Shown: one piece after another, positions 3,260 to 40,822 of the stretch
How the letters are laid out: the number at the start of each line of letters is the position of its first letter
How positions within the stretch are numbered: the stretch's first letter is position 1
Source: a virus
UHGV virus genome: UHGV-0045723
Reading direction: 5' to 3' (one strand)
DNA length: 44,729 bases
Position numbers and translations under genes: made by a program
Notes under the pieces: generated by a model
What the model was told of the DNA's origin: nothing
The model's input: only the letters and a program-made list of their open reading frames with translations
The model's database searches: none

Positions 3260-3421
3260 GAAACTGATTTTCGCTATTAATAATCAGGGTATTTTTGCGT
3301 GAGATGTCGGTAAACATGATGTAGCCCTTGCCACTCATGACCAATCGCAGTATCTTTCTCCCGCGCCTGCAAAATCAGGCGTCGGGATTAGCCTCCTGAA
3401 GAAATCTTATCGGCGACACAT

Positions 3422-3442
3422 GACGCGCCAGCGTCTTTTTTT
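3422..3442 (+). terminator. Putative rho-independent terminator downstream of RT-nitrilase gene
   Basis: GACGC-gcca-GCGTC hairpin followed by a run of 7 T. Confidence 0.4.
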
Positions 3443-3605
3443 GTGTTGTTCGCACGGTTACATCTCAATGGTGGGCCGGGCGGGGGCGGCGCAAGACGCG
3501 CCAGTGTCCGATAAGGCTGGTAAGGCTAACCCTGCCCGGTTCCACCACCCGCGAGATTAGCCTCTCCGGTGGTGGCTTGAACACCCACTTATCGGAGGTT
3601 GCCCT

Positions 3606-6300: not shown

Positions 6301-6366
6301 TGGCGGAGAGAGGGGGATTTGAACCCCCGGTAGAGTTGCCCCTACTCCGGTTTTCGAGACCGGTCC
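6301..6366 (-). tRNA. Partial tRNA-Ser(CGA) 3' fragment (att-site remnant, not a complete gene)
   Basis: Reverse complement reads GGACCGGTCTCGAAAACCGGAGTAGGGGCAACTCTACCGGGGGTTCAAATCCCCCTCTCTCCGCCA: anticodon loop CGA, long variable arm, T-arm and CCA, but no matching 5' acceptor/D-arm. Confidence 0.6.
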
Positions 6367-6446
6367 AATCATCAAACGAAACATAAAATTAATTCACATT
6401 ATGAGGAAAAGTATCTTTTTTGTACTATGTAAATTCAAAGACTTAG

Positions 6447-9015: not shown

Positions 9016-9430
9016 GCCATTCAATATCGGGGGCTGTTGAAGTATCAACACGCATCAGCAGCACACGGTATTTCTTCCATTGGGTGAGAGTTGAAGTTTC
9101 TTCATCAGTTGCAATGCCCGCATCAACAGCATCCTGACGCCAGGATATTTCACTGTCAGCTTTTGCACGAAATGTGGCTTTCATGTTTTCTGCATCTGAT
9201 ATTTTCTGTTCTGGTGAAAGCGGCGGCTCATCAACCCATGCAAGGGCCCCTGAAACCATTCCCAGCATTTTTCCTGTTGGCTTATTTCCCCCATTAAATC
9301 TGACAGCATCCTCATCGCTGATTTCAATACCATCCTGCGGCCATGTCCCCTCCTTGATATAACTTTCGTATAGCGCTGCGTTGTAGATTGCATTTTCGGA
9401 AGGGCTGTAAACACTTTTAACTTTATTCAT
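8987..9430 (-). CDS. Tail fibre assembly protein (active orientation)
   Basis: 147-aa ORF immediately downstream of the tail-fibre gene on the same strand. Confidence 0.7.
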   Translation of the reverse strand: MNKVKSVYSPSENAIYNAALYESYIKEGTWPQDGIEISDEDAVRFNGGNKPTGKMLGMVSGALAWVDEPPLSPEQKISDAENMKATFRAKADSEISWRQDAVDAGIATDEETSTLTQWKKYRVLLMRVDTSTAPDIEWPTPPAVQAR

Positions 9431-30442: not shown

Positions 30443-31618
30443 ATGGATATAACTTGTTTAGAATGTGGCAATGTTCTTGACGACCCAACTGTAGCTTGCG
30501 ATAAATGCGGTGCCACGCCTCATGTTGTAGTGCTGGGCAAACAATCGTACTTTCCTATTGGTGCTGTAACAGCAAATCTTGAAAAAAATGATTCAAGAGC
30601 ATTTGATTATCGATTAGGTGAAGTTTGGGATCTAAAAAATGAAGTCACATCTGAATTCATAACCAGAATTGAGAAAAAATTTAGCCGAAAAAACAAATTT
30701 CATAACTTCCTAGACTCAGATCACAACCCTTCATCCATTCCTACGATCCTAAAAAAATACATTAATAAAAATAATGAATTCATTGATTTATCTAGAGCTA
30801 TAATAGAGAAGCTTAAACATAATGCTAATAACGAATCGAGAGTTGCCCAACTTCAGGGGGGGAGCGTTGTTTTCATCCACTATAAGTCTACCGAACCAGA
30901 GGATTTGGGGAAACTTCTAATCGTAATGGTTGATAAACAAAGCGCCTATGACTTTGATTCGGATAAGTTGACCCCAACAAGATTAAATCCAATTAATACC
31001 GATGCCTTACGGCAGGCTGCGATGTTCGATTTAACTTTATTCGAAGCCAGTTATCCAGAAAACAAGGGTGACTCATATGTACATTTCTTGCAAGGTAAAT
31101 CTAAAAGCGATTTTTTCAAAGACTCATTAGGTTGCCGACATGATTCGGACAATAAAAGAAGCATTCAGCAATTATTCAGTGCTATAGATATTTTTGCTAG
31201 TAAAAACTCACTCGGTCGTGTACTGCGTGATACTATTGACAATGAAGTTAAATCCTTACTGGAAAAAAAATCAAAAGATAAACACGGAAATAAGTCCGTT
31301 AAGATAGAGGATATTTCAAAAATAATTGACTCATGCCTGACTGATTCACACAAATGTAAGGGAACGTTTGTCGATTTTGTTAATCTTAATGGTTTCCAGA
31401 TTGACCCTCAATTTGAACCAACTCCTAAAGCAGCTGAAAGCGCGCTTACAATTGAAGTGGCAGATAACGACAATAATTTTAAGTTGAAAATAATGCGTGG
31501 AGCTATTGGAGACGAAAAGTCAAATAAGCCTGTAATTCTCACTGACAACAAATGCGAAATTGTGATAAAATTGAGTCAGGCAAATTATGATGAACTCAAA
31601 AGATATAGAGACAGCTAA
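30443..31618 (+). CDS. Zinc-ribbon protein with NdpA/YejK-like (NA37) nucleoid-associated domain; candidate defence gene A
   Basis: 391-aa ORF in AT-rich DNA; N-terminal CLECG-x12-CDKCG; central GGSVVFIHY, LLIVMVDK, YVHFLQGKSKSDFFKDSLG resemble E. coli YejK as I remember it. Confidence 0.7.
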   Translation: MDITCLECGNVLDDPTVACDKCGATPHVVVLGKQSYFPIGAVTANLEKNDSRAFDYRLGEVWDLKNEVTSEFITRIEKKFSRKNKFHNFLDSDHNPSSIPTILKKYINKNNEFIDLSRAIIEKLKHNANNESRVAQLQGGSVVFIHYKSTEPEDLGKLLIVMVDKQSAYDFDSDKLTPTRLNPINTDALRQAAMFDLTLFEASYPENKGDSYVHFLQGKSKSDFFKDSLGCRHDSDNKRSIQQLFSAIDIFASKNSLGRVLRDTIDNEVKSLLEKKSKDKHGNKSVKIEDISKIIDSCLTDSHKCKGTFVDFVNLNGFQIDPQFEPTPKAAESALTIEVADNDNNFKLKIMRGAIGDEKSNKPVILTDNKCEIVIKLSQANYDELKRYRDS

Positions 31619-31620
31619 TA

Positions 31621-32835
31621 ATGACAATTGCTGATGACTTATCAAGATTAGCGCAGATTATTAACGGAGCCTCAAGCAGAGTTGAGGGCTACTACACTGT
31701 CATAAGTCTTGAAGAAAGCATTGTTATTGTAAATAGTTCTGAAATAATTAGACTGTTACAATCTATAGGTTATAAAAAGGCAACAACCTGCATCGAAAAT
31801 AATGAAATTTGGCTAGATCGCCAAGCTTCATCTTGGGATGACGCTATAATTTATGAGAATGTTGAGTCTTTTTGGTCTAGAGTAAACACCCAAAACGCTC
31901 TTCCGAAAAATTATATCATCGGAACGCCGTTAATACTCCCTACTTCTAAGAATGAAAGCATCGAAAAAATCCATATTTTCTTTATGTGGAAAGATATCCT
32001 TTCATTAATTGCTGATCATCATAACAGTGACTGCTCTGTCTTATTTTTCACCAATGAAGACAAAAGTTATACAGTCGAACTCACGCATTTTTTACAATAT
32101 AGCGAGATTAATCGCTTATCGAACTCGTCTCTTAAATATGAAATTATAAAGGAGCTTCTCGACACAATAAAAATCAATGATTTACACAAAAGCGAGCGCA
32201 AGCTCGTTATACGCTCAGCCATAAACGAAGTATTTAAAGCAAATGGTACGTTCAATTTCTTTGACTTGCTTAACTCTACTGAACTCGTCAGGAAAAAATA
32301 TGATGAACTATATGAGATTTACACAAAGAGGTTTTCTGTAAATAAAATTCTTAACGAACTCGATGAGAAAAATCTTGAGTTCACGAGTAAAATTAACGAA
32401 TTCATATCATCTAATCAGACAAAAGCATTGACTATTCCCGGTGCATTAATAGCAGCTGGTGGCTTAGTGAAGGCTAATGAAACAACCGAAGCAATATTGA
32501 TTATCGCAGGACTTTGGATGATAAAAAAAGTCAATTACATTTCTATTGAGATATTCAATGAAACATTCGACAACTTACGTTCTCGAGTGGAGTCCGCTTT
32601 CGATAAGTATTTAAAGTTTGAAGAAAATAAAGAAATCAAAGATAATGCAGATAGTATTAAGAGTAGCATTACAGGTTTGATTGATAAAGCTAAAAAAAGG
32701 ATGAGAACTGTTAAATATCTCGCATCAGCCATGTTTTATGGAGGCCTTATTTACGTTGGATATAAACAGTTCCCAGTCTTTTTTGAAAAATCGGCAGTAA
32801 ATCTATTTTATTTTTTATGCCATACTATAAGCTAA
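31621..32835 (+). CDS. Membrane protein with helical N-terminal domain; candidate defence gene B
   Basis: 404-aa ORF starting 2 nt after gene A stop; hydrophobic helices ALTIPGALIAAGGLV...ILIIAGLWMI and YLASAMFYGGLIYVGY. Confidence 0.7.
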   Translation: MTIADDLSRLAQIINGASSRVEGYYTVISLEESIVIVNSSEIIRLLQSIGYKKATTCIENNEIWLDRQASSWDDAIIYENVESFWSRVNTQNALPKNYIIGTPLILPTSKNESIEKIHIFFMWKDILSLIADHHNSDCSVLFFTNEDKSYTVELTHFLQYSEINRLSNSSLKYEIIKELLDTIKINDLHKSERKLVIRSAINEVFKANGTFNFFDLLNSTELVRKKYDELYEIYTKRFSVNKILNELDEKNLEFTSKINEFISSNQTKALTIPGALIAAGGLVKANETTEAILIIAGLWMIKKVNYISIEIFNETFDNLRSRVESAFDKYLKFEENKEIKDNADSIKSSITGLIDKAKKRMRTVKYLASAMFYGGLIYVGYKQFPVFFEKSAVNLFYFLCHTIS

Positions 32836-33186
32836 CATTGCTAAACAGCCGTCAACAAACCCCATTGCAGTTTGCAGTTCCTTCCTAATTGTGCCATCAG
32901 AGCATTTTCTCTTCTTCGCAATAGTGCGTAATGAGATACCGATAACAAAGTGGGCGATGATGAGCTCATATTCCTCTGGTTTATACCTTCTCAACCGAGC
33001 CACACAACTGTCTATCATGATGCCTTCGTCATCATCACACTGAATCCGTGACTTTTTGCCATGAGGTAAAAGTCCCTTGAAACCAGCCGCTATCGGCTGC
33101 CAGTCCACTCCGCTATTGTCTGAAGCAGCCCAAGCTCCCCAACGATCCATTACTTCATACATATCACGCATCAACTTTCTCCACAA
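32815..33186 (-). CDS. Late-gene antiterminator Q (phage 82-type)
   Basis: 123-aa ORF with RWGAWAA...SIAAGFKGLL...C..DDD...C....RL pattern; position ahead of lysis genes. Confidence 0.8.
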   Translation of the reverse strand: MWRKLMRDMYEVMDRWGAWAASDNSGVDWQPIAAGFKGLLPHGKKSRIQCDDDEGIMIDSCVARLRRYKPEEYELIIAHFVIGISLRTIAKKRKCSDGTIRKELQTAMGFVDGCLAMLAYSMA

Positions 33187-38997: not shown

Positions 38998-39672
38998 ATG
39001 AAAACAATCCATGACATCCGGCGGTCTAACGCCAGAAAACTGAGAGATGGTGTTGGCGGGAATTCTTCCTTTGCCACTATGATTGATCGCGAGCCAACCC
39101 AGACCAGCAGGTTTATGGGAGATGGTGCTACTAAAAATATCGGTGACAGCATGGCACGACACATCGAAAAATGTTTCGACCTGCCTGTCGGATGGCTCGA
39201 TCAAGAACACCAGACAACGAACATCACAAAAAAACCTGATGTTTCAATCACTAATAAACAAATCACATTAGTCCCTGTCATATCATGGGTACAGGCCGGA
39301 GCATGGAAAGAAGTTGGATATTCTGAGGTTGATTTGAGCACAGCAGAAACGTATCCCTGCCCTGTACCCTGTGGGGAAATGACTTATATCTTGCGGGTGA
39401 TAGGTGATTCAATGATTGATGAGTACCGCCCGGGAGACATGATTTTTGTCGATCCTGAAGTACCTGCCTGCCACGGTGACGACGTTATTGCATTGATGCA
39501 CGATACAGGCGAAACCACCTTCAAAAGGTTGATAGAAGATGGGACACAGCGTTATCTCAAAGCGTTAAACCCAAACTGGCCTGAGCCTTACATTAAGATC
39601 AACGGTAATTGCTCTATAATTGGTACAGTGATTTTCTCAGGAAAACCAAGAAGATACAAAATCAAAGCCTAA
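38998..39672 (+). CDS. CI-like repressor (HTH + S24 LexA-like peptidase domain)
   Basis: 224-aa ORF; C-terminal RVIGDSM...GDMIFVDPE...FKRL. Confidence 0.85.
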   Translation: MKTIHDIRRSNARKLRDGVGGNSSFATMIDREPTQTSRFMGDGATKNIGDSMARHIEKCFDLPVGWLDQEHQTTNITKKPDVSITNKQITLVPVISWVQAGAWKEVGYSEVDLSTAETYPCPVPCGEMTYILRVIGDSMIDEYRPGDMIFVDPEVPACHGDDVIALMHDTGETTFKRLIEDGTQRYLKALNPNWPEPYIKINGNCSIIGTVIFSGKPRRYKIKA

Positions 39673-39684
39673 TCAATGTTTATG

Positions 39685-39707
39685 AACCTGCTTCGGCAGG
39701 TTTTTTT
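39685..39707 (+). terminator. Rho-independent terminator after cI-like gene
   Basis: AACCTGC-ttcg-GCAGGTT hairpin followed by 7 T. Confidence 0.6.
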
Positions 39708-39710
39708 ATA

Positions 39711-39746
39711 CTTGACAATGTACCTTTGAGATACATAATGTACCCA
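39711..39746 (+). promoter_or_regulatory. pL-like promoter with TGTACC operator half-sites
   Basis: TTGACA-16 nt-CATAAT; ATGTACC repeated within and just after the promoter. Confidence 0.4.
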
Positions 39747-39916: not shown

Positions 39917-40123
39917 ATGACCGCGCGTAGACCAAGGGAGGAAAAAGTGGGAATAGTTAGAAATCAAGCAGATATATTGAAAATCAGCTCTGAATTACTT
40001 GGAGTTTTGAAAAGTGAGCTCACCGCACATGGCATCGAGCCCACTGACGAAAATTTAAGTTGGGTTTTGTCGATTATTCAACAATCACTCAAGCCCAGCC
40101 TCAGCAAACTTTTTATCGAGTAG
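39917..40123 (+). CDS. Small hypothetical early protein
   Basis: 68-aa ORF; a likelier start is the GTG at 39947, preceded by AGGGAGG. Confidence 0.35.
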   Translation: MTARRPREEKVGIVRNQADILKISSELLGVLKSELTAHGIEPTDENLSWVLSIIQQSLKPSLSKLFIE

Positions 40124-40276
40124 TGCTTCGAACTTATCGTAAAGCTTGCTTATGTCGTCTATCGGGTTTTCTGACGTACTGTAATTTTTATCTGATGTCA
40201 TGGCAGCAGTCTGATATGCAGTGTGAGTCTTAACCGATAGTTGGAATAAATAAAGAATTTTTTCTTCTTTGGTCAT
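40085..40276 (-). CDS. Small hypothetical protein (AT-rich, antisense to early-left operon)
   Basis: 63-aa ORF from the ATG at 40276 with AAGGA RBS. Confidence 0.3.
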   Translation of the reverse strand: MTKEEKILYLFQLSVKTHTAYQTAAMTSDKNYSTSENPIDDISKLYDKFEALLDKKFAEAGLE

Positions 40277-40399
40277 AACTATTTCCTTCTTGGCTATATG
40301 AAAACACCAAGATACCACCGAGCCTGAAGTGGTGAAAAGACAGGCACATAACAGCTAAGTATTTTCAACCAAAGAGAATCCTTAGCGTTGTGGTGAATG

Positions 40400-40690
40400 C
40401 GGCTCAGCGCACGCGGGTTAAGGTTGAGGCTGACAGTCGACCTTCTGTGGATACCCACCCGTCTGGTGTGCAACCTTCGCCAGGCACCGGGAGGCACCCG
40501 GCACCACAACTTTATGCTGTATGTAGTCCTGGCGGTACCAGTTTGTACCCTTGCTTCCGGCTGGTACCGTCCTTTTTACAAAACAGAGAAGAGCATCACC
40601 GGACGACGGGCTCATAACCCAATCCATCCGGGCGGCTGCCACCGCAGGTGTTCTTCTCTGTTTTGTGGAGAAACTAATCGGCCTTGCAGG
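40400..40690. other. Structured non-coding region (candidate ncRNA or leader)
   Basis: 15-bp perfect stem (40578-40592 with 40652-40666), GGCGGTACCAG...CTGGTACCG hairpin plus T-run at 40541-40577, CCGGG/CCCGG hairpin near 40487-40501; ORFs here have implausible composition. Confidence 0.3.
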
Positions 40691-40822
40691 GTCGATATGA
40701 TGAGGAGCAGCAAAATGGCTAGCGAACGCAGTACTGATGTGCAGGCATTTATCGGGGAGCTGGACGGCGGCGTATTTGAAACCAAAATCGGCGCAGTTCT
40801 CAGTTAAGTCGCTTCCGGTGTG

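Follow-up and report, generated by a model that had tools for sequence, protein, structure and literature searches.

The window analysed here is the whole 44,729-nucleotide stretch of virus genome UHGV-0045723, an SfV-like lambdoid prophage. Its cI repressor gene lies on the plus strand and its cro and cII-like genes on the minus strand, so the early-left operon is transcribed on the plus strand. The region under study lies in this operon, as originally predicted, 3′ of cI and of a candidate pL-like promoter and 5′ of yfdP (orf32 of Shigella phage SfV), the first conserved early-left gene. With SfV the flagged DNA shares 99.7% identity, and about half of complete E. coli genomes contain it. 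Approximately 640 nt separate the promoter in the window from the first of two folded elements, termed module A and module B, and this interval holds a convergent gene pair. The 63-aa minus-strand ORF of the pair matches phrog_2605, to which no function is assigned, and does not overlap the structured region. A 68-aa ORF that follows pL had no Pfam match and a PHROG of unknown function as its sole match, and no N-like gene was found. The public records inspected (phage and E. coli genomes, including SfV and ST64B) annotate no RNA at the region. We conclude that this stretch forms the untranslated leader of the operon and carries two conserved folded RNAs split by a terminator. A same-strand LexA/cI-type repressor ORF lies upstream (median distance 932 nt) at 81 of 91 loci with the leader form of module B (type 1). 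Positions of all features are collected in Table 1.

Table 1. Features of the early-left leader and its surroundings in the window
Feature	Position	Strand	Description
cI repressor	38998-39672	+	
cro and cII-like genes		-	
cI terminator	39684-39703		just before the pL-like promoter
Candidate pL-like promoter	39712-39739	+	TTGACA, 16-nt spacer, CATAAT; 11 of 12 consensus matches (consensus match only)
Convergent gene pair, first gene	39917-40123	+	between the pL-like promoter and module A
Convergent gene pair, second gene	40085-40276	-	63-aa ORF
Upstream hairpin	40354-40386	+	GCUAAGUAUUUUC / GAGAAUCCUUAGC; 13 nt, 85% complementary; just 5′ of module A
Region under study	40387-40677	+	non-coding, strongly structured, conserved
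Module A	40387-40510	+	pseudoknotted multi-helix RNA domain, ~124 nt, closed by GUUGUGGUG/CACCACAAC
Module A, P1	40387-40395/40502-40510		perfect 9-bp long-range helix
Module A, H1	40398-40401/40408-40411		
Module A, P2	40414-40417/40458-40461		
Module A, pseudoknot	40420-40426 with 40471-40477		
Module A, H3	40462-40468/40478-40484		
Module A, H4	40487-40491/40497-40501		
Invariant 22-mer	40485-40506	+	CACCGGGAGGCACCCGGCACCA; inside module A
Linker	40511-40530	+	UUUAUGCUGUAUGUAGUCCU; 20 nt, predicted single-stranded
Intrinsic-terminator-like hairpin	40531-40577	+	13-bp stem 40531-40543/40559-40571, 15-nt loop, CUUUUU 40572-40577
Module B	40576-40668	+	three-way junction on a 20-bp closing stem (15 bp perfect)
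Module B, closing stem	40577-40587 and 40589-40597 with 40647-40655 and 40657-40667		one bulge per strand
Module B, perfect 15-bp stem	40578-40592 with 40652-40666		ACAAAACAGAGAAGA with TCTTCTCTGTTTTGT; 59 nt enclosed
Module B, arm 1	40599-40631		5 + 2 + 3 bp; loop CUCAUAA 40611-40617
Module B, arm 2	40632-40645		short variable hairpin
Conserved tail	40665-40677	+	GUGGAGAAACUAA; kept in type-1 copies
Small hairpin	40677-40696	+	segment 40677-40717: -10.4 kcal/mol, z -1.4, alone not significant
Shine-Dalgarno GAGGAG	40702-40707	+	ahead of yfdP
yfdP (SfV orf32) start codon	40715-40717	+	SfV annotation; first conserved early-left gene

The original prediction described a highly structured non-coding region with nested inverted repeats, a perfect 15-bp stem and a terminator-like hairpin with a T-run, and each of these elements was recovered. 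On the plus strand, 321 nt fold with -138.6 kcal/mol (z -4.9), and 0 of 100 shuffles folded equally well; the minus strand of the same 321 nt reached z -3.1. The nested repeats correspond to the P1 helix, which surrounds several hairpins, and the perfect stem sits inside a 25-nt inverted repeat that is 84% complementary. Folding also extends upstream of the region, where the segment 40305-40390 reaches z -3.0 and the sequence from about position 40310 onward is common to other leaders. Comparison with relatives, which had been suggested as a check, showed that pairing is conserved in both modules by compensatory changes.

Three ORFs overlap the region, at 40390-40617 (75 aa), 40397-40807 (136 aa) and 40418-40642 (minus strand), and a RefSeq ‘hypothetical protein’ underlies part of it in E. 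coli genomes. One could therefore read one of the two plus-strand frames as coding, or the locus as a type I toxin-antitoxin pair. We regard this as exceedingly improbable. Among the homologues of module B there are length differences of 1, 2, 4, 8, 23, 25 and 27 nt, so that no reading frame could survive in the region, and sequence change clusters at paired positions, where it is compensating. Neither the SfV nor the ST64B record has a gene at this place, and the ORF list holds no candidate toxin ORF beside or overlapping the structured region, the ORF at 40085-40276 lying outside it. On these grounds the coding and toxin-antitoxin readings were rejected; the ORFs are as implausible as first judged, and the suggestion of a type I antitoxin-like RNA falls with the missing toxin. 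A second suggestion, that of a phage sRNA, can be upheld for the first half of the region only, which is a sub-threshold relative of the STnc100/PasD RNAs with a terminator of its own. As to the suggested antitermination or processing site, the region shows no sequence likeness to HK022 put, and the long stem would make a plausible substrate for RNase III.

BLAST searches against phage genomes split the region at about position 40530 into two halves. The first half is common to SfV, ST64B, 118970_sal3 and Cronobacter phage phiES15, and the second is also present in mEp460, cdtI and many Stx2c phages from which the first is missing. The stretch consists of two separate, independently conserved modules, the second of them tRNA-like, an arrangement that the original prediction had not recognised.

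Module A was compared with Rfam. At gathering thresholds no family was found in the region; searches at E-values up to 10 returned a sub-threshold match to STnc100 (RF02076) for the first half, noise for the second half and no riboswitch. Module A aligned end to end with the STnc100 model at 39.6 bits, below the gathering cut-off of 47, with an E-value of 7e-7 in a 1.1-kb search and 2.8e-5 for the whole window. Its close relatives in phiES15 and ST64B scored 40.6 and 35.1 bits, respectively. The core of STnc100 is present in module A, namely the helix GYGGUG/CACCRC, the AAU that follows it and the hairpin CCGGG-AGGCA-CCCGG abutting the 3′ strand. The invariant 22-mer was found in at least 120 viral contigs, whose 108 distinct contexts fall into 32 clusters with little else in common. 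These sequences do share a plan. A closing helix and AAU are followed by a small hairpin, a variable middle and a further hairpin, the loop of which pairs back to the segment right after the first hairpin; a 5-bp hairpin then abuts the 3′ strand of the closing helix, and a linker of 30-60 nt leads to an intrinsic terminator.

Covariation supports the pairings of module A. In the alignment of the window clade (A5), the full structure pairs 90.9% of cells, against 34-42% when partners are slid, and 11 pairs have changed on both sides, including 5 of the 7 in the pseudoknot, whose helix is 96.3% paired. Between clusters the pseudoknot strands are unrelated in sequence, yet they remain complementary and constant in position: AAGGUUG/CAACCUU in the window, AAGGCUGG/UCAGCCUU in phiES15, and CCAGUC/GACUGG and AGACUGACAAA/UUUGUCAGUCU elsewhere. 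Across 103 family sequences the complementary run averaged 6.3, compared with 4.4 in shuffled loops. This pseudoknot is absent from the Rfam STnc100 model. Taken together, the comparisons show module A to be a real structured RNA and a divergent relative of STnc100, not a member by the Rfam criterion.

Canonical members of the STnc100 family are flanked by a Q-type antiterminator gene on one side and by holin/lysozyme or nanS-p esterase genes on the other. A sigma-70-type promoter (in one example TTGACA, 18 nt, TAAATT) was seen in 8 of 17 cluster representatives examined; its -10 element ends 8-9 nt before GGUGAAU, so the RNA would start at the closing helix. In all cluster representatives a hairpin with a U-run lies 3′ of the core. 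The layout is that of a constitutive late promoter with an immediate terminator. STnc100 copies are transcribed in EHEC, one of them confirmed by Northern blot (PMC5331693), and the STnc100-related PasD is an abundant Hfq-bound sRNA encoded beside Q (bioRxiv 10.64898/2026.05.13.724894); for STnc100 itself no function has been established (PMC12370729). Module A has in common with these RNAs the identical 22-nt core CACCGGGAGGCACCCGGCACCA, the closing helix with AAU and a hairpin directly after it, the 5-bp hairpin abutting the 3′ strand, the intrinsic terminator beyond a short linker and the position in a prophage operon that must pass a terminator. It differs in its first hairpin (UGCG/CGCA, against CCCCC/GGGG in STnc100), in its place in the early-left leader instead of the interval between Q and the lysis genes, and in lacking the closely spaced sigma-70 promoter of many canonical copies; a sigma-70 consensus scan of the window found no convincing promoter directly upstream of module A. 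A likeness of layout links it to lambda 6S RNA and to StxS, a terminated by-product of the late leader that acts as a regulatory sRNA (PMC7547250). In each case a promoter is followed by a structured RNA of about 100-200 nt, an intrinsic terminator and an operon that needs read-through, whereas lambda 6S RNA and StxS start at pR′ and their read-through depends on Q, and the operon of module A is the repressor-controlled early-left one. The 66-nt sRNA HnrS was considered and is unrelated.

The linker that follows module A is unpaired in the fold, and its consensus UUGCUGUGUGUAGUCUU recurs in related leaders whose module A interiors differ, which makes it a candidate seed or protein-binding segment. 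The best duplex of the linker with a target inside the phage had -21.1 kcal/mol, a value that shuffled linkers also reach (-17.3 to -22.7). The terminator-like hairpin beyond it folds with -20.5 kcal/mol (z -4.2 against shuffles) and has the G+C-rich hairpin and U-run of an intrinsic terminator; a consensus terminator scan, which accepts shorter loops only, did not pick it up. A hairpin with a U-run occupies the same position in nearly all relatives, with different stem sequences.

Module A is one of several cassettes that occupy this place. Among 103 distinct leaders with module B, 94 carry a cassette closed by GUUGUG...CACAAC upstream, 34 of them with the STnc100-type 22-mer. At least six unrelated types of interior occur among otherwise homologous leaders, and all of them keep the closing helix, the hairpin right after AAU and the hairpin beside the 3′ strand; the STnc100 model detects the 22-mer type and none of the other interiors. 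Since the interiors differ completely, a single shared molecular function of the interior cannot be assumed. At the Stx2c phage locus L006, a module-A-type cassette (GUUGUGGUGAAU...CACCACAAC) begins within roughly 15 nt of the pL promoter (TTGACA ... TACATT), and the terminator, module B and yfdP come next, with no ORF of at least 55 aa between. The gene after module B also varies, being yfdP, an rdgC-like gene or others.

A related arrangement exists in the late leader of lambda. Directly after tR′ and its U-run, lambda has a long stem (CACAACAGGUAAGAGCAU/GUGCUCUUUCCGUUGUG) and then a cassette closed by GUUGUGCUG/CAGCACAAC, a helix in which one pair has changed on both sides relative to that of the window. 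The model of module B scores 21.5 bits on lambda through the stem only, the interior being different and lacking the tRNA-like arms. Because lambda keeps the stem and not these arms, stem and junction may serve different purposes. Pantoea phage PA-1 has the same order as lambda, with the tRNA-like junction. Both the closed cassette and the scaffold made up of terminator, U-run and long stem are therefore old components of lambdoid leaders.

Module B folds far better than its shuffles (z -7.6 for the module alone). Among 27 distinct homologues, 97.9% of cells are paired, against 36-54% with partners slid, and 9 pairs have changed on both sides. RNAalifold on a MAFFT alignment recovered the closing stem and mis-paired the junction; the arms were therefore supplied by hand and tested with the slid controls. 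The covariance model R1 gave module B 112.1 bits on the plus strand and 37.1 on the minus strand, an asymmetry showing that the RNA has the same orientation as the operon. Among homologues the closing stem changes in sequence, and the length of arm 2 varies between 14 and about 40 nt. In arm 1 the distal 22 nt (GACGGGCUCAUAACCCAAUCCA) are almost invariant over at least 15 enterobacterial genera, among them Escherichia, Shigella, Salmonella, Citrobacter, Enterobacter, Klebsiella, Kosakonia, Leclercia, Phytobacter, Mixta, Erwinia and Pantoea, and the arm-1 core was found in 25 species genomes across Enterobacterales. Such an invariant arm implies a sequence-specific partner, for which factors that read CAU-type anticodon arms are candidates. 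At its base, module B may be joined to the terminator: GUGGAGA of the conserved tail can pair with the U-run and two further bases (UUUUUAC, 40573-40579), and the fold extends the stem to 40573/40671.

The tip of the invariant arm copies the anticodon arm of the initiator tRNA. Positions 40607-40620 are identical over 14 nt to CGGGCUCAUAACCC, the anticodon stem-loop of E. coli tRNA-fMet, including its three G:C pairs. The tRNA-fMet sequence was checked in E. coli genomes, where it belongs to an annotated tRNA-Met gene with 4 copies per genome. Copies of the ST64B type have the loop CUCAUUA in place of CUCAUAA. In the window this anticodon-arm mimic lies 47 nt upstream of the yfdP start codon.

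A second form of the junction (type 2) occurs in Klebsiella-type phages (GZ7, Chronis and IMG/VR contigs), in the late operon downstream of Q. There 6 nt separate it from the CCA of a preceding tRNA-Arg or tRNA-Asn gene; it is closed by a 6-bp stem (GGCCUG/CAGGCC) and measures about 70 nt in total. An A/G-CCA (NCCA) end is present in 13 of 14 variants, the helices are 99% paired, and arm 2 shows compensatory changes. The basal helix of arm 1 differs between the two forms in a compensating manner (CCUGA/UCAGG in type 2; CCGGA/UCCGG or CCGGG/CCCGG in leaders), and Pantoea copies have CGGAU/AUCCG and GUAUG/CAUGC. One contig (L210) carries the leader and late-operon forms together. Type 2 is thus tRNA-like in its size, its acceptor-like stem, its NCCA end and its place in a tRNA array; module B differs from a tRNA in having neither a D arm nor a T-loop motif, and in the window the ‘acceptor’ is a 20-bp stem without CCA. 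In standard and permissive modes ARAGORN predicted no tRNA in the window or in type-1 or type-2 copies, and its permissive mitochondrial mode gave inconsistent noise only. The Rfam tRNA model scored the neighbouring tRNAs at 64-66 bits and left the type-2 element unmatched at E-values up to 10. No Rfam family matches module B in its leader or late-operon form, and our literature search returned nothing on a tRNA-like or initiator-tRNA-mimic element in lambdoid leaders. Judged by these comparisons, module B is a conserved tRNA-like element outside every RNA family library searched. An origin from the phage tRNA(CAU) genes of the same loci was considered and rejected, little being shared beyond the anticodon loop.

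Known systems offer parallels for both parts of module B. The E. coli thrS operator is an anticodon-arm mimic, and RNase III sites occur in the lambda N leader and in T7 early RNA. As in those phage leaders, the untranslated stretch before the first gene contains, in module B, a stem of some 20-27 bp interrupted by one or two bulges; this stem is capped by a conserved three-way junction, not by a simple loop.

Our main reading, to which we assign a probability of roughly 45%, is that the region is an attenuated leader that yields a short terminated RNA and whose read-through transcripts carry an excisable tRNA-like RNA. It starts from the observed anatomy, strand, covariation, distribution and two genomic contexts; the efficiency of termination, the processing, the action in trans and the partner of the invariant arm are given here as we would expect them. 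Module A and the terminator would form an attenuator at which much of the transcription stops, at position 40577. The released product would be a compact pseudoknotted RNA, module A with the linker, ending in a short single-stranded tail. Such a product would match in its build the promoter-to-terminator RNAs of late leaders (STnc100/PasD, StxS and lambda 6S), some of which are Hfq-bound and trans-acting. Polymerases that read through would transcribe module B, whose long stem may pair with the U-run of the terminator and display the tRNA-like junction. In the leader form RNase III might cut the long stem and so free the junction as a small stable RNA, a cleavage assumed from helix length only; in the late-operon form tRNA-processing enzymes might excise it. 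A cut in the leader would also give the yfdP mRNA a defined 5′ end. Weighing against this reading are the distance of module A from the pL-like promoter, with a convergent gene pair between and no convincing promoter of its own, its score below the Rfam cut-off, the divergence of module A interiors, the lack of a target for the linker inside the phage and the loss of the tRNA-like arms in lambda.

Module A could instead be a cis-acting processive antiterminator of the kind of HK022 put that takes the place of an N protein, its nascent fold binding the RNA polymerase that made it so that this polymerase passes the terminator at 40531-40577 and later ones. The leader invites such a reading in that a terminator lies between pL and every early-left gene while no N-like gene is present; ST64B and the Stx2c phage lack an ORF between cI and yfdP, with none of at least 55 aa in L006, where the cassette begins right after the pL start site, as putL does (PMC9378689). 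The closing helix, AAU and flanking hairpins are moreover kept across variants. Like put, module A is a structured RNA that heads an early operon before terminators in a phage without an obvious N (PMC9378689). HK022 put, which suppresses downstream terminators in cis through the zinc-binding domain of the RNA polymerase beta′ subunit, is about 70 nt long with two stem-loops and occurs in both early operons, whereas module A is a closed pseudoknotted junction of about 124 nt, present as a single copy in the window and not in the early-right operon. Compared by eye, the HK022 putL and putR sequences show no likeness to module A in sequence or architecture, so that a put-type RNA is unsupported on that basis. 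Interiors differ radically among phages of the same hosts, in which the polymerase is identical; canonical STnc100 copies lie in late operons that already have Q, and the lambda counterpart lies downstream of tR′, where it is reached by Q-modified polymerase only. We think antitermination by module A unlikely. A sensory role is also conceivable, with module A as a riboswitch-like, tRNA-sensing or protein-sensing domain and the terminator as its expression platform, or with module B as a thrS-like translational operator through which a host factor for CAU-anticodon arms (MetRS, or IF3/30S at the P site) controls translation of the first gene. The succession of a complex, conserved, pseudoknotted fold, a terminator and genes would suit a sensor, and the position of the anticodon-arm mimic relative to the yfdP start codon would suit an operator. 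P1 and the terminator are nevertheless set apart by the 20-nt linker, no alternative pairing between them is evident, module A interiors differ where the downstream genes are the same, the gene after module B varies, and the type-2 copy lies beside no start codon. Either form of this explanation is very unlikely.

It is also doubtful that the first half alone is functional, as a trans-acting Hfq-type sRNA of the STnc100/PasD kind, with module B being a decayed tRNA remnant and a stabilising stem-loop at the yfdP 5′ end. Because tRNA genes are common at the 5′ end of lambdoid late operons (PMC8022706), tRNA remnants are to be expected there, and module B is rejected by ARAGORN and the Rfam tRNA model and reduced in lambda to its stem. 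The pattern of conservation nevertheless contradicts a neutral remnant: an arm of about 30 nt is almost invariant in at least 15 genera while the basal helix, arm 2 and closing stem change in a compensatory manner, the same junction is kept in two unrelated genomic contexts, and the strands differ by 75 bits. At the other extreme, and rather improbably in our estimation, module B may represent a new class of phage tRNA mimic, L-shaped and without a D arm, with an initiator/CAU-type arm. It would be made from terminator-distal transcripts only, that is, during lytic development, and its excision would fall to RNase III in leaders and to tRNA-processing enzymes in tRNA arrays. Acting in trans, it could serve as a decoy for a host factor that recognises this arm, such as a tRNA-fMet-cleaving anticodon nuclease of the VapC/MvpT kind, or alternatively modulate MetRS or initiation at the ribosomal P site. 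Module A and its relatives, including the cassette of the lambda late leader, would then be a second family of exchangeable cargo RNAs housed in leaders with terminators.

Lambdoid leaders are usually viewed as a promoter, a nut or qut site, a terminator and spacer. The ‘spacer’ here consists of exchangeable, strongly selected RNA folds that recur in prophages of Shigella and Salmonella as well as in phages of Klebsiella and Pantoea and have remote counterparts in the late leader of lambda. The widespread STnc100/PasD family gains a firmer, pseudoknotted model, a genomic logic (the head of an operon before a terminator) and an extension into early-left operons. For a tRNA-like RNA with an initiator anticodon arm, candidate roles in general are those of a processing signal, a translational operator or a decoy against tRNA-targeting factors. 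Several of the carrier phages are serotype-converting or Shiga-toxin phages, so how their early-left transcription, which includes the excision and integration genes, passes the leader terminator without N is a practical question.

Two further observations concern the 3′ part of module B. The 3′ strand of its stem reads UGCUCUUU, which was considered as a boxA and rejected, since the window copy has 2 mismatches and the element would be base-paired; the same boxA-like reading occurs in the module A flank of relatives and of lambda, and, with 36 found against 31 expected, the window shows no enrichment of boxA-like octamers. The tail GUUUUGUGGAGAAAC after module B resembles the degenerate start of another cassette.

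In the late leader of phage lambda, a long stem and a closed cassette follow one another between tR' and S, the cassette being closed by GUUGUGCUG...CAGCACAAC. This leader is homologous in layout to modules A and B of the window, with the long stem corresponding to module B (the tRNA-like three-way junction) and the closed cassette to module A (the pseudoknotted domain related to STnc100). The lambda stem and cassette are covered by no Rfam family. In the late region of the window, two plus-strand ORFs part the Q-type gene from the lysis genes, and no copies of module A or module B were found in the late leader (30443-33186).

The reading (G)UGCUCUUU or UGCUCUC is shared by the 3' strand of the module B stem and, in the relatives, by the sequence immediately before GUUGUGG; the copy in the window reads UGUUCUUC. 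With a GU-rich run after it, this sequence is a candidate likeness of the boxA element known from nut and rrn sites; it is not enriched within the window. Approximately 40-70 nt upstream of the module A cassettes in four related leaders (L005, L210, L227 and L235), a hairpin, GGUCCGUUCGAUUCGGAC, resembles a tRNA T-arm and is a further tRNA-like fragment in these leaders.

Positions of features in the window and in related phage leaders (L237, phage lambda; L005, L134, L210 and L235, other leaders)
Feature	Position	Strand	Remarks
Long stem and closed cassette	L237 985-1142 (lambda 44784-44941)		between tR' and S
BoxA-like sequence	window 40647-40655; L237 1048-1056; module A flanks in L005, L134, L210, L235		
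Q-type antiterminator gene	32815-33186	-	PF06530
ORF between Q and lysis genes	30443-31618	+	
ORF between Q and lysis genes	31621-32835	+	
68-aa ORF	within 39917-40276	+	phrog_15476, function not assigned
63-aa ORF	within 39917-40276	-	phrog_2605, function not assigned
isrK	within 3350-3552	+	Rfam 68.8 bits, above cut-off
C4 antisense RNA	within 3350-3552	+	Rfam 65.7 bits, above cut-off

Between the pL-like candidate promoter and module A, the 68-aa and 63-aa ORFs are convergent and overlap by 39 nt. Upstream of ~40305 the window and SfV no longer agree, and this small-ORF pair therefore looks like a swapped insert. The first early-left gene, yfdP, is probably a pseudogene in this prophage, because a G to T change at 40805 converts GAA to TAA, an in-frame stop that is absent from SfV and from all other yfdP copies fetched (75/75).

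The Rfam search also placed isrK and C4 antisense RNA next to each other in the window, together with a sub-threshold match to the c4-a1b1 target at 3350-3402. This arrangement suggests a locus for antirepressor control of the P1/Gifsy type, and the isrK/C4 pair was also found beyond cII in the ST64B and Stx2c phage loci. Sub-threshold Rfam matches included IS009 at 9036-9225 on the minus strand (50 bits against a cut-off of 117) and, at 6304-6382, overlapping weak matches, one of which is tRNA-Sec-like and scores 29.7 bits; both regions may be other structured spots.
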